A stretch of DNA of 64,000 nucleotides from Escherichia coli (GTDB lineage Bacteria; Pseudomonadota; Gammaproteobacteria; Enterobacterales; Enterobacteriaceae). This document shows, piece by piece, positions 30,519-63,982 of the stretch (positions are counted from its first letter, which is position 1; each line of letters starts with the position of its first letter). A model generated the notes under the pieces. It was given only the letters and a program-made list of their open reading frames with translations. It was not told the origin of the DNA and did no database searches. The stretch lies in assembly GCF_001677475.2 (NCBI RefSeq), contig NZ_CP015229.1. One strand, 5' to 3'. A program made the position numbers and the translations under genes.

Positions 30519-32612
30519 CTACATCAACGCCCCCATAATCTTCAACTCCAGCTCATCCGGCACTTCGTTATACGACAGCACATGCAGCCCCGGCGCAAAC
30601 AATCTCGCATAGCGCTCCAGTAAAGGGCGTAACTGCGGCGGCACCAACAACACCGGGTCTTTCCCTGCAGCTTTCATCTGCTCCTTCACCTGCGGCATCG
30701 TGCTCTGGAACTGGTTGAGCATATTCGGGTCCACCGGCACGCTGTCGAGCATCACTTTCCCGCCCTGTTGCGCCTGACTCACCACATTGGTCAGCAGATT
30801 TTCCAGCTCATTATTCAGCGTATATACCGTCAGCTCCTGCTTGCGAACGAACGGATGGGTAATGCTACGCCGCAGCGCCAGGCGCACATCGGCTGCCAGC
30901 AGAATATGATCTTTGGTCACTGTACTACTGGCAACCAGCACGGTGGCGATGGTGACGATATCGCGCAGGGAAACGCCCTCGGTCAGCAGCGCACGGTACA
31001 CTTTCAGCAACTGGCTGTAATTCAGCGCCGCGCTTAAGTCTTCCGCCAGGCGCGGCGCCATCGACGACAAACGGTTATGTAACTGCGTAATATCGTCATA
31101 GTTAAACAAATCAGGGATATAGCTGCGCACAATCTTGTTCACATGGGTGGCAATCACGCTGGCGCTGTCGATCACCTGATACCCCATATTCAGCGCCTTC
31201 GCTTTCTGCGCAGGCTGGATCCAGGTCACCGGCATCCCATACGCCGGGTCATTCCCCAGCACGCCGTCTATCTCGCCGTAAGTTTCGCTGGAGGGCAGCG
31301 CCATCAGTTTATCCGCCGGAATATCCGCTTCATCAGCCTTTATGCCGTTGATGAAAATAGCGTACTGGCTGGGCTTGAGGCGGAAGTTTTCCCGAATGCG
31401 GATCTCCGGCAGCAGCACGCCGTTACCGTCGGATATCACCTGCCGCACGCCGCGAATCCGCTGGGTGAGCGGGTTACCTTGGGCTTTATCGACCAGCGCC
31501 ACCAGCTTGTAGCCGAGGCTTAAGCTGATGGGCTCGATCAGCGGAATGGTTTCCCAACTGACCTGTTGCTCGCTGGTTTCGGTGATGGTTCGGGTCAGCG
31601 TTTCGAGGCTTTTCTCCTCCGCCTCCGCCGCCTGCGGGCGTTTGCTCATCCGCCAGCCGGTAAAGCCAAGCAGGGCGCTGAACAGCAAAAATGGCAGATG
31701 CGGCATCCCCGGCACCACCGCCAGCACAAACATGATCCCGGTGGCGGTGTAGAGCACCGACGGGCTTGCCAGCAGCTGGTGGCGCACGTCATGGGCGATA
31801 TCGCCGTTGTCGCTGACGCGGGTGACGATAATTGCCGCCGCGGTGGAGAGCAGCAGGGACGGGATCTGCGCCACCAGGCCGTCGCCGATGGTCATCAGCA
31901 CATATTGCTGGAAGGCGGCGTCGGCGCTCAGGTTGTATTTGAAGATGCCGATACAGACGCCGCCGATCAGGTTGATCGCCAGAATCATCATCCCGGCGAT
32001 GGCATCCCCGCGTACAAACTTCGATGCCCCGTCCATCGCGCCGTAGAAATCGGCCTCGCTGGCAACATCTTTACGCCGGGTTTGCGCCTGCGCCTGGTTG
32101 ATCAACCCGGCGTTAAGGTCGGCGTCAATCGCCATCTGCTTACCGGGCATCGCGTCTAAGGTAAAGCGGGCAGAAACCTCGGAAATACGCTCGGCCCCTT
32201 TGGTGACGACGATAAAGTTGATGATCATCAGGATGATAAATACCACGAAGCCAACAACGAAGTTGCCGCCGATCACCACCTGACCAAACGACTCAATCAC
32301 CTTACCCGCCGCGCCCGCGCCGAGATGTCCATGCAGCAGCACCACGCGCGTAGAGGCGACGTTAAGCGTCAGGCGCATTAAAGTGGTGATCAGCAAAATG
32401 GTCGGGAACAGGCTGAATTCCAGCGGACGTTTCGCCGACACGGCCACCAGCAGCACCATCACCGCCAGCACAATGTTGAAGGTGAACAGAATATCCAGCA
32501 ACGCAGGCGGCAGCGGCAGAATAACCATCGCCAGAATACACAGGATCACCAGCGGCACGCCGAGATTGCCGCCGCGCAGCAGCGCGAGGAACGATTTAGT
32601 TGTTTTCGCCAT
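30519..32612 (-). CDS. lfhA: Flag-2 flagellar export apparatus protein LfhA (FlhA homologue)
   Basis: 697 aa, multi-TM N-terminus plus cytoplasmic domain; typical FlhA. Confidence 0.9.
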   Translation of the reverse strand: MAKTTKSFLALLRGGNLGVPLVILCILAMVILPLPPALLDILFTFNIVLAVMVLLVAVSAKRPLEFSLFPTILLITTLMRLTLNVASTRVVLLHGHLGAGAAGKVIESFGQVVIGGNFVVGFVVFIILMIINFIVVTKGAERISEVSARFTLDAMPGKQMAIDADLNAGLINQAQAQTRRKDVASEADFYGAMDGASKFVRGDAIAGMMILAINLIGGVCIGIFKYNLSADAAFQQYVLMTIGDGLVAQIPSLLLSTAAAIIVTRVSDNGDIAHDVRHQLLASPSVLYTATGIMFVLAVVPGMPHLPFLLFSALLGFTGWRMSKRPQAAEAEEKSLETLTRTITETSEQQVSWETIPLIEPISLSLGYKLVALVDKAQGNPLTQRIRGVRQVISDGNGVLLPEIRIRENFRLKPSQYAIFINGIKADEADIPADKLMALPSSETYGEIDGVLGNDPAYGMPVTWIQPAQKAKALNMGYQVIDSASVIATHVNKIVRSYIPDLFNYDDITQLHNRLSSMAPRLAEDLSAALNYSQLLKVYRALLTEGVSLRDIVTIATVLVASSTVTKDHILLAADVRLALRRSITHPFVRKQELTVYTLNNELENLLTNVVSQAQQGGKVMLDSVPVDPNMLNQFQSTMPQVKEQMKAAGKDPVLLVPPQLRPLLERYARLFAPGLHVLSYNEVPDELELKIMGALM

Positions 32613-33735
32613 CCAGTTTAAGCACCTCTTTGGGAATGGAAATATGTCTGTTCAGGGCCGGGCGCGGCTGTGCGCCCTCGCGCCAGTGTTTCATTTGCAG
32701 GACGTAGGTCAGAACGTGGGCGATAGCCCGGTAAAGCTGAAACGGAATTTGCTGGTTCACCTGGGTGGTGTAGTAAACCGAGCGCGCCAGTCGCGGGAAC
32801 TCGACCACTTCCACCTGATTCTCAGTGGCGACCTGGCGAATATAGAGGGCGATTTCATCGGTGCCTTTCGCCACCACAAACGGCGCGGCGGCGCGCGACT
32901 GGTCATACTGCAACGCCACGGCGTAGTGGGTCGGGTTGGTGATCACCACGTTGGCTTTCGGCACCACTTTGCGAATCTGCCCCATCGCCAGTTGCCGTTG
33001 CAGCCGCCGCACGCGTGCCTTCACTTCCGGCTTGCCTTCCTGATTTTTGTACTCTTCTTTCAGCTCTTGTTTGGTCATTTTTAGCCCTTTGGTGAACAGG
33101 GCTTTCGCCAGCGGCACGTCGATAAGTGCAAAGAAAATAAACAGGATTACAAAGTTGCGCATCACGCTGGCGTAGAGCGATAAACCATCGTTAATTGCCA
33201 GTTTGAACGGCAGCGCCTGCAGGCCGAGAAAGGCGGTAAAGTTATTGCGTAGGCTAATCCACAACATCACCAGCACCACCACCGACTTCACCGTCATCTT
33301 CCCCGTTTCCGCCAGATGTTCACTGGAGAACAGCCGCCCAATGCCTTTTAACGGGCTGATTTTGCTGAAATCCGGGAGGATTTTTTTCGGCAGAAACAGC
33401 CAGCCACCAGGCACCAGCGAAGAGAGCAGCGCGGCGGCGGGCATCGGCAGCAACGTAAGAATAAACTTGCCGAGAATTAACAGGTGATGGCGCAGAAACT
33501 GGCCGATAACGTCCGGGTTATTAATCTCCTGCGCGTACTGATGCACGCTGATAAAACTCTCGCGCACAAAATCGGCATACCATGGGAAGCTGCTGGAGAT
33601 CACCACAAACGCCGCAAACAGGCTCGCCGCCAGCCCCATATCCTTCGAGCGCGGCAGTTGCCCCTCTTCACGCGCTTTACGCAGCTTTTGCGCCGAGGGT
33701 TTCTCTGTTTTTTCTTCGCTGCTGCTATCCGCCAT
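32596..33735 (-). CDS. lfhB: Flag-2 export apparatus protein LfhB (FlhB homologue)
   Basis: 379 aa, N-terminal ...EKTEKPSAQKLRKAREEG... typical of FlhB. Confidence 0.9.
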   Translation of the reverse strand: MADSSSEEKTEKPSAQKLRKAREEGQLPRSKDMGLAASLFAAFVVISSSFPWYADFVRESFISVHQYAQEINNPDVIGQFLRHHLLILGKFILTLLPMPAAALLSSLVPGGWLFLPKKILPDFSKISPLKGIGRLFSSEHLAETGKMTVKSVVVLVMLWISLRNNFTAFLGLQALPFKLAINDGLSLYASVMRNFVILFIFFALIDVPLAKALFTKGLKMTKQELKEEYKNQEGKPEVKARVRRLQRQLAMGQIRKVVPKANVVITNPTHYAVALQYDQSRAAAPFVVAKGTDEIALYIRQVATENQVEVVEFPRLARSVYYTTQVNQQIPFQLYRAIAHVLTYVLQMKHWREGAQPRPALNRHISIPKEVLKLDGENN

Positions 33736-34507
33736 AGTGACCTTTCAGCGCGTCGAGCTGTTGCAGGACAAAATTCGCCAGATGCAGATAGTGATCCGGC
33801 AGGTTGTAGAGCAGGGTGGCAAAGCAGACCAGCCCCGCCAGCATGTTGATGGGAAAGCCGAGCGAAAAGAGGTTCAGCGGCGGTGCAATACGGTTAAGCA
33901 GGCCAAAGCAGCCCTGCACAATCAGCATGATAAAAGTGGTCGGCAGCGCCAGTAGCGATGCGGATGCCAGCACCCAGCTAAAGGCCAGCGCGATGGTGCG
34001 CAGGGTTTGCGGATGCAGCGCGTTGCCGATCGGCCAGTAGGTGAAACCCTTATACAGCACGCTCACCAGCAGCAGATGCCCGTCCATGGCAAAAAACAGC
34101 AGGATCGTGTAGACGTTGATTAACTCCGCCAGCACGGTGGTCGATGCGCCGCTGCTCGGGTCGTTCATCACCGCCATGCTCATCCCCATATTGAACGAGA
34201 GAATTTGCCCGGCCAGTTGCAGCGCCAGAAACAGAAACTGAAACATCAGCCCGAATAACATGCCCCATAAAATTTGCTCCACCGTCAGGATCAGGCTGTT
34301 GAGCGATAACAGGTCGTGGGGAATGGGATGGGGGATCAACGGCGTGATGATAATTGCCAGCGCCAGCGACAAAATAATCCGCACGCGCACGGTCAGGGCG
34401 CTGTTATCCAGCACTGGCACATAGCGCAGAAACGCCATAATGCGCACGAAGGGAAACCACAGCCCCAGCGCCAGATCCATCAGTTGCGTAACGTCGCTTG
34501 TGCGCAT
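33725..34507 (-). CDS. lfiR: Flag-2 export apparatus protein LfiR (FliR homologue)
   Basis: Polytopic membrane protein; start chosen at internal Met by alignment logic with FliR. Confidence 0.8.
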   Translation of the reverse strand: MRTSDVTQLMDLALGLWFPFVRIMAFLRYVPVLDNSALTVRVRIILSLALAIIITPLIPHPIPHDLLSLNSLILTVEQILWGMLFGLMFQFLFLALQLAGQILSFNMGMSMAVMNDPSSGASTTVLAELINVYTILLFFAMDGHLLLVSVLYKGFTYWPIGNALHPQTLRTIALAFSWVLASASLLALPTTFIMLIVQGCFGLLNRIAPPLNLFSLGFPINMLAGLVCFATLLYNLPDHYLHLANFVLQQLDALKGHYGG

Positions 34508-63567: not shown

Positions 63568-63589
63568 TTCATAAGGAATATCCCTAAAG

Positions 63590-63982
63590 ATGTATGAAGT
63601 ACAGGATGGTTATTCGCAATACAAAGAGGTCGATCTCGCGGCACGTACCGCGGCGGCCTCTCCGCTTGAACTGGTGCTGGTGCTGTTCGCCGGGCTTCTC
63701 GACGAACTGGAGCGCGCCAAAAGCCACATTGAAGGGCGACGTTTCGAGAAGAAAGCTCAGAGCATCAATAAATGTATCGACATTCTCAATGCGCTCACCA
63801 GTTCACTGGAGTTTGAAACCGGCGGCGAGCTGGTGGTTAACCTTTCGCGCCTCTATGACCACTGCGTGTATCGCTTGTATGAGGCCAGCGGCGAGCTGTC
63901 GGCGGAGAAAATCGATGAAGTGATGCTGATTTTAAGCAACCTGCGCGAAGGCTGGGAAGGGCTTTCGGGCAAGCTGGGTTAA
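63590..63982 (+). CDS. lafC: Lateral flagellin chaperone LafC (FliS homologue)
   Basis: 130 aa, FliS-like helical protein. Confidence 0.8.
   Translation: MYEVQDGYSQYKEVDLAARTAAASPLELVLVLFAGLLDELERAKSHIEGRRFEKKAQSINKCIDILNALTSSLEFETGGELVVNLSRLYDHCVYRLYEASGELSAEKIDEVMLILSNLREGWEGLSGKLG

Follow-up and report, generated by a model that had tools for sequence, protein, structure and literature searches.

A Flag-2 lateral flagellar locus with full-length reading frames in an Escherichia coli genome

What does an Escherichia coli genome carry at the site where K-12 keeps only fragments of two flagellar genes, and could the genes found there still build a flagellum? We address these questions for a stretch of 64,000 nucleotides of E. 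coli contig NZ_CP015229.1 (assembly GCF_001677475.2), called the window throughout, in which a Flag-2 locus occupies positions 30519–63982. Flag-2 is a secondary flagellar system of enterobacteria that shares homology with the lateral flagella found in Vibrio parahaemolyticus, Aeromonas and Plesiomonas. Thirty-six colinear open reading frames (ORFs), from lfhA to lafC, fill this interval, as seen in the ORF list for 28000–64000 and in tblastn searches with reference proteins; its exact bounds are the stop side of lfhA at 30519 and the lafC stop at 63982. In our judgement it is very probable that these ORFs form the opening 33.5 kb of a complete Flag-2 locus in an E. coli-type genome, a reading that takes the completeness of the locus and the mechanism outlined below as one.

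As reference we used the annotated E. coli CM2010-0578/1 locus (L001), whose 36 proteins from flhA (lfhA) to fliS (lafC) were translated and searched against the window by tblastn. All 36 align from first to last residue at a single place each, arranged and oriented as in the reference and with 86–100% amino acid identity. The sole gap across these alignments is a three-residue in-frame deletion in LfgK. When the genes were extracted and translated, 35 by script and lfgK separately, each was found to contain one stop codon, located at the gene end. Full-length alignment and translation thus reveal no premature stops, frameshifts or insertion sequence (IS) elements in the 36 ORFs. An earlier note on this DNA had placed full-length ORFs without internal stops in the same interval and had named frameshifts or stops as what a careful alignment might bring to light; its description is borne out by tblastn and translation alike. 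Given the lfgK deletion, the word ‘intact’ applies to the ORFs only. The count of more than 35 flagellar genes offered at that stage agrees with 36 ORFs in Flag-2 order, but is slightly generous, as the tally consists of 33 core flagellar or regulatory genes and three flagellin-modification genes of variable region 1 (VR1).

The published Flag-2 architecture comprises three syntenic clusters, a pair of variable regions (VR1, VR2) and 39 conserved genes (PMC6993521). The window contains 33 genes of this conserved set, all at full length and correctly ordered. The genes lafK, lafW, lafZ, lafA and lafB are used as detection markers for Flag-2, and the first three have no orthologue in Flag-1 (PMC6993521); here all five are full length, and their products are 96–99.7% identical to annotated E. 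coli Flag-2 proteins. The left flank reads yafV, ivy, fadE, lpcA, yafJ, dpaA, yafQ, dinJ, yafL, rayT, with all genes intact and in the same order as in K-12 MG1655 and in CM2010-0578/1, and the locus sits at the yafL–rayT site. The placement of a Flag-2 locus at the lfhA/lafU site therefore holds, since the flanks match K-12 and both the markers and the LafA family model fit.

Cluster 1, formed by lfhAB-lfiRQPNM and lafK-lfiEFGHIJ, encodes the export apparatus, C-ring, MS ring, ATPase complex and a sigma-54 activator. Its first half is on the minus strand (percentages here and below are amino acid identities to the reference over the full length of each protein): lfhA, an FlhA-type export gate (30519–32612, 697 aa, 98.9%; TIGR01398 FlhA at 773.5 bits, cutoff 772.1), lfhB (FlhB; 32596–33735, 379 aa, 97.9%), lfiR (FliR; 33725–34507, 260 aa, 99.6%), lfiQ (FliQ; 34509–34781, 90 aa, 100%), lfiP (FliP; 34784–35536, 250 aa, 98.4%), lfiN (FliN; 35533–35904, 123 aa, 97.6%, PF01052 FliMN_C) and lfiM, a FliM-like switch protein (35897–36748, 283 aa, 98.2%, PF01052). 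The second half is on the plus strand and starts with lafK, a sigma-54-dependent activator (37135–38121, 328 aa, 97.3%), followed by lfiE (FliE; 38136–38477, 96.5%), the MS ring gene lfiF (FliF; 38482–40128, 548 aa, 98.5%), lfiG (FliG; 40106–41116, 99.4%), lfiH (FliH; 41120–41830, 90.3%, dN/dS 0.115), lfiI, the export ATPase FliI (41823–43160, GTG start, 98.7%), and lfiJ (FliJ; 43163–43597, 99.3%).

VR1 lies between lfiJ and lfgN at 43600–47666. It holds a cytidylyltransferase-like protein on the plus strand (43600–43995, 131 aa, PF01467 CTP_transf_like, 97.7%) and, on the minus strand, a glycosyltransferase of family 2 (GT2; 44114–46558, 814 aa, PF00535 at residues 20–157, 93.1%) and lafV (46737–47666, 309 aa, 86.1%), whose product is a distant FliB-like flagellin lysine-N-methylase. 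The match of LafV to NF038110 (E=8e-13, 48.6 bits) falls under the curated cutoff of 85, and PF27117 FliB_C has been precomputed on a protein identical to it. The GT2 enzyme presumably acts in flagellin glycosylation, a role taken from PMC6993521.

Cluster 2, lfgNMA plus lfgBCDEFGHIJKL, supplies rod, hook, rings, junction proteins, chaperones and an anti-sigma factor. The minus strand carries lfgN (FlgN chaperone; 47794–48222, GTG start, 88.7%), lfgM (anti-sigma-28 factor FlgM; 48235–48513, 93.5%) and lfgA (P-ring chaperone FlgA; 48594–49331, 93.9%). On the plus strand follow the rod genes lfgB (49413–49748, 99.1%) and lfgC (49751–50182, 143 aa, 97.2%), the hook cap lfgD (50182–50895, 98.7%), the hook lfgE (51039–52241, 98.5%), the rod gene lfgF (52241–52978, 98.8%), the distal rod lfgG (53157–53942, 99.2%), the L ring lfgH (54149–54814, GTG start, 97.7%), the P ring lfgI (54829–55929, 98.4%), lfgJ (55929–56228, 99 aa, 96.0%), which has the rod-binding domain PF10135 only, without a muramidase domain, lfgK for hook-filament junction protein 1 (56437–57804, 455 aa, TIGR02492 at 341 bits) and lfgL for junction protein 3 (57819–58748, 98.1%). 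The mechanically called lfgG ORF (53031–53942) begins further upstream because its reading frame extends into a spacer filled with repetitive extragenic palindromic (REP) elements.

Cluster 3 opens with lafW, lafZ, lafA, lafB and lafC. The product of lafW (58765–59742, plus strand, 96.6%) is a Flag-2-specific, putative hook-associated protein, named after PMC6993521, for which profile searches gave no Pfam or NCBIfam match. Flag-2-specific lafZ is on the minus strand (59801–60643, 96.1%) and encodes a ToxR/CadC-like regulator with a PF00486 Trans_reg_C winged helix at residues 25–97 and a weak CadC-like match. The remaining three are on the plus strand: the lateral flagellin gene lafA (61129–62043, 304 aa, 99.7%; NF033376 lat_flg_LafA_1 at 667 bits, cutoff 440), the filament cap gene lafB (FliD; 62251–63567, 98.2%) and the FliS chaperone gene lafC (63590–63982, 96.9%), the last gene before the window end. 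VR2 is empty, the lafW–lafZ spacer being 58 bp long with one REP element. At ~5500–6155 of four other loci (L003, L004, L005 and L007), VR2 holds a Gp49/HTH (HigB/HigA-like; HTH, helix-turn-helix) gene pair between lafW and lafZ.

How does this arrangement relate to the remnant in K-12? In that genome two pseudogenes, lfhA (b0229) and lafU (b0230), come immediately after rayT and precede dinB. K-12 is colinear with the window from 30519 up to 32231, inside lfhA, and then jumps into lafU of L002, a locus 99.9% identical to the window, with 15 bases at the junction aligning to both sides. The K-12 deletion consequently spans the region from approximately codon 125 of lfhA to the first ~150 bp of lafU, and the window represents the undeleted state. 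The 15-bp overlap agrees with the deletion between short repeats that PMC6993521 reports for K-12, citing Ren et al. (2005), and a complete Flag-2 locus as the ancestral state is likewise the reading of Ren et al. as cited there. The statement that K-12 retains only remnants at this site was thus correct: only the lfhA and lafU fragments are left. In the E. albertii type strain NBRC 107761 (L014, match 3704–5400) LfhA is matched only from residue 125, the same truncation point as in K-12, which suggests an lfhA deletion that is shared across species or has recurred.

The window stops 18 bp after lafC, and lafD–lafU lie beyond it. We infer the continuation from identical public contigs. NJSK01000030.1 (GCA_002516285.1) matches the final 17.5 kb of the window (46437–64000) with 100% identity, and DACZAT010000023.1 does so over 53482–64000. 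Both go on with lafD (103 aa), lafE (353 aa), lafF (155 aa), lafS (238 aa), lafT (287 aa) and lafU (called at 307 aa), with lafD–lafT at the reference lengths. LafS is a sigma-28 factor and LafTU a MotAB-type stator. In L002 lafU is followed by dinB, yafN, yafO and yafP, the right flank. The expectation of the earlier note that the locus would run past lafC is in this way sustained, and the absence of lafD–lafU that it had offered as a possible objection is not observed in any of the three. An exact-protein look-up in public assemblies finds the LafC protein in 332 assembly blocks. LafT (positions 20144–21004 of NJSK01000030.1) recurs without a single residue changed in 55,594 assembly blocks, far above LafC, which indicates extreme conservation of the stator and that Flag-2 is common in public data.

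Is this, then, a new system? The locus resembles E. coli Flag-2 in its site between rayT and dinB, the order and orientation of the three clusters, the lafK, lafW, lafZ and lafA markers and the VR1 pair of GT2 enzyme and LafV, and its proteins are 86–100% identical to those of the annotated CM2010-0578/1 and PCN033 loci. The first description of E. coli Flag-2, in enteroaggregative E. coli 042, is credited to Ren et al. (2005) in the survey of De Maayer et al. (2020; PMC6993521). Since all the testable defining features of Flag-2 are present (site, markers, synteny, VR1 and LafA model), the locus is an ordinary member of an already known system; complete clusters have been described since 2005, and the locus itself adds nothing new. 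Some differences from its relatives are nonetheless worth recording. The window has an intact lfgC, whereas that of 042 is frameshifted (PMC4578781, PMC4637896), and an intact lfiF, whereas fliF of PCN033 is a pseudogene. Unlike L003–L005 and L007 it has no VR2 cargo. It is a distinct haplotype of ~94% DNA identity with a clone-specific three-codon deletion in lfgK, and the number of REP elements in its spacers differs from that in other E. coli loci. Being clean and free of IS elements, with lfgC and lfiF both intact, it is a reasonable candidate for expression tests of Flag-2 in E. coli.

With the Laf systems of V. parahaemolyticus, Aeromonas and Plesiomonas shigelloides the locus shares the LafK sigma-54 activator, the sigma-28 factor LafS, the LafA flagellin, the LafTU MotAB-type stator and a cluster without chemotaxis genes. 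Among the matches listed, the best Aeromonas caviae FlhA is 58% identical. In contrast to these systems, LafK of the window lacks an N-terminal regulatory domain, lafW and lafZ were added in enterobacteria (PMC6993521), and E. coli Flag-2 is so far known from its genes.

What would such a locus do? LafK consists of a Sigma54_activat domain (residues 6–172), an AAA lid and a Fis-type helix-turn-helix (HTH_8), and with no receiver domain its activity is presumably governed by its own expression. By homology, LafK and sigma-54 would activate promoters such as those of lfgB, lafB and lafV, and the export apparatus would then build the basal body and hook. Secretion of LfgM would free LafS, and the late genes, including the flagellin gene lafA, would be switched on. 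The VR1 enzymes would modify LafA, which would polymerise on the junction formed by LfgK and LfgL, capped by LafB. LafTU would power rotation. This pathway is modelled on the homology with Laf systems and on general flagellar assembly.

Motifs matching the sigma-54 −24/−12 pattern TGGCAC-N5-TTGCW occur in front of these three genes, all intergenic, correctly oriented and known as motifs only. The motif TGGCACGGCGATTGCT at 49361–49376 (plus strand), 37 bp upstream of lfgB, is an exact match and is identical in CM2010-0578/1. Upstream of lafB, TGGCACGCCTTTTGCC at 62204–62219 (plus strand) has one mismatch, and the same 16-mer is kept in 11 of 12 other loci despite ~5% divergence. The third, CGGCACGGTAATTGCA at 47701–47716 (minus strand), lies upstream of lafV and also has one mismatch. 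For PCN033, sigma-54 sites have been reported upstream of lfgB, at the corresponding position, and upstream of lafB (PMC4578781).

The genes appear to have been maintained by selection. Over 29.4 kb of concatenated coding sequence, comparison with CM2010-0578/1 gives a nonsynonymous rate (dN) of 0.015 and a synonymous rate (dS) of 0.222, a dN/dS of 0.069; per-gene values are below 0.24 everywhere, and lafA reaches 0.006. These ratios point to strong purifying selection during most of the time that parts the two haplotypes, although very recent events leave dN/dS uninformative. A value of 0.07 argues for the use of Flag-2 somewhere in the life of E. coli. A homologous cluster is required for swarming in Plesiomonas (PMC4481668, PMC6993521). 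We advance, tentatively and as a possibility that is doubtful as yet, that the locus specifies a working lateral flagellar system, switched by LafK and sigma-54 under untried conditions (low temperature, surfaces, outside the host). Selection would then reflect real use, and the LfgK variant would be a natural form of the junction protein that is either tolerated or marks the beginning of loss. If this were true, it would settle whether Flag-2 does anything in E. coli.

Several observations weigh against a complete and functional locus. The genes lafD–lafU are outside the window itself. Sigma-54-like matches are not enriched, with 34 found against 45 expected over the whole window, so that only the placement of the motifs is informative, and there is no convincing sigma-28 site (TAAA-N14-16-GCCGATAA) upstream of lafA; the same search upstream of lfgK was equally negative. 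In strain EC958 no LafA was detected and no Flag-2 motility was seen at 28 or 37°C, and expression of Flag-2 in E. coli is undemonstrated in the literature (PMC4637896). The LfgK segment that carries the deletion is gap-free in 15 homologues of 75–99% identity (Escherichia, Citrobacter, Enterobacter, Leminorella and others), and the loss may impair the hook-filament junction.

The lfgK deletion is central to the strongest alternative, according to which the locus is an ORF-complete but silent or recently inactivated relic: this deletion, cis-regulatory decay or silencing would block the filament, and the genes would be on their way to becoming pseudogenes. We consider such a relic quite possible, though short of probable. 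The deletion removes 9 bp in frame at 56641/56642, between ATCAGGTG direct repeats, and takes QVN from RVSNQY[QVN]QVWY, turning RVSNQYQVNQVWY into RVSNQYQVWY. The protein is consequently 455 aa long, whereas every other Flag-2 FlgK examined has 456–459 aa. In the homologue alignment the adjacent Y, Q, V and W do not vary, and the segment aligns with REYDAF[ITN]QL of solved FlgK structures, which opens both the crystallised D1 fragment 2D4Y and a conserved D1 helix. An exact-protein look-up returns the 455-aa form in 26 assembly blocks, which shows that the allele is genuine and not an assembly error; it is confined to this clone. Its position beside invariant residues in an otherwise gap-free segment and its rarity compared with the 332 blocks for LafC of the same haplotype favour a relic. 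So do the frequent decay of Flag-2 (the fliF pseudogene of PCN033, the lfgC frameshift of 042 and the en bloc deletion in most E. coli; PMC6993521) and the lack of LafA expression in EC958 (PMC4637896). The lafZ–lafA spacer, moreover, falls where the locus is richest in AT (GC 0.46 at 60001–62000), which would fit silencing. Against a relic stand the reading frames kept in all 36 genes, the intact sigma-54 motifs and a dN/dS of 0.07 that speaks for constraint over most of the divergence time; the lfgK deletion preserves the frame, costs about one turn of helix and is too recent to leave a dN/dS signal either way. The clone-specific deletion provides a natural allele for comparison with the 458-aa form.

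Where does this haplotype come from? We ran megablast with window positions 30000–54999 and 55000–64000 against 5,426 complete E. coli genomes, scoring the locus as present when at least 80% of it was covered. It is found in 958 of them (~18%) at ~94–95% identity, and the matched features are annotated as flagellar. In a published set Flag-2 is present in 24 of 100 E. coli strains, the rest holding lfhA/lafU remnants, and 78% of Flag-2 loci across Enterobacterales are complete (PMC6993521). The modest identity might speak for import of the locus from another Escherichia species or clade, as opposed to vertical descent within E. coli. Besides the best E. coli matches of only 94–95%, such an origin could draw on the dS of 0.222 in Flag-2 versus 0.127 in the yafV–dpaA flank (21675–27977), both relative to CM2010-0578/1, and on the link of the flag-2 region with recombination in sequence type ST131 (PMC4637896). 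We nevertheless regard import as improbable. The Flag-2 loci of CM2010-0578/1 and PCN033 are themselves 95.0% identical, with flanks at 97.7%, and those of EC958 and 042 are ~94% identical (PMC4637896); ~94% identity is therefore the normal spread of haplotypes. The locus occupies its native site between native flanks, of which the fadE–dpaA core segment shares 98.4–98.6% identity with several E. coli genomes, PCN033 among them. Citrobacter is clearly farther away, with LfhA at 93% among the matches listed and FlgK at 85–89%. For the same two reasons, the fadE–dpaA identity and the 95.0% between two E. coli loci, a foreign (non-E. coli Escherichia) origin proposed from ~94% identity of the locus and ~96% identity of a 10.5-kb flank to E. 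coli was rejected. To judge from these comparisons, the window adds a further haplotype to the rather deep diversity that is normal for the locus.

Among the matches listed, the close relatives of LfhA are Citrobacter werkmanii, the truncated E. albertii copy and Aeromonas. The flanking genes yafV, yafL and rayT are also unusually divergent, with dS of 0.17–0.31, and the raised dS around the site suggests old haplotypes or recombination.

That Flag-2 serves mainly as a protein-export or adhesion device is very unlikely: non-motility roles have been suggested for some enterobacteria that possess Flag-1 as well, a Flag-2 knock-out of Y. enterocolitica left motility unchanged (PMC6993521) and an altered LfgK would fit an exporting basal body and hook without filament, but strong constraint has kept the genes for flagellin, cap, stator and junction alike, the lafA dN/dS of 0.006 points to selection on a rotating filament, and the locus in the window contains no effector-like cargo gene, its VR2 spacer measuring just 58 bp.

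The spacers of the locus are rich in REP elements and bacterial interspersed mosaic elements (BIMEs), located at 30308–30518, 36920–37015, 44015–44105, 50905–50995, 52985–53130, 59750–59795 and 62050–62090. They adjoin rayT (29810–30307), which encodes the REP-associated tyrosine transposase. A 95-bp tandem duplication is present at 30308–30497, and ~100 bp of extra REP DNA separates lfgF from lfgG relative to CM2010-0578/1. Strains differ in spacer length largely through gain or loss of REP elements. Rfam naRNA4 is matched by several REP clusters, located in the spacers and immediately upstream of rayT, and apart from these REP-derived matches tRNA and Rfam scans returned nothing in the locus. 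A further element of ~115–125 bp occurs three times, at 46592–46719 (between the GT2 gene and lafV), 53955–54083 (lfgG–lfgH) and 56235–56356 (lfgJ–lfgK). Two inverted boxes rich in GC, GCCCTCACCCCGGCCCTCTCCC...GGGAGAGGG and CCCCTCGCCCC...GGGGAGAGGGTTAGGGTGAGGGG, make up the element, which resembles the E. coli ‘box C’ intergenic repeat and may correspond to it. Upstream of the left flank, at 1309–20295, the window carries a type VI secretion cluster of variable GC content (0.42–0.61), which encodes Hcp, TssK (VasE), TssL (DotU), TssM (IcmF), a Rap1a-type immunity protein, VgrG, a DcrB-domain protein and a 1380-aa prePAAR/PAAR-Rhs effector.

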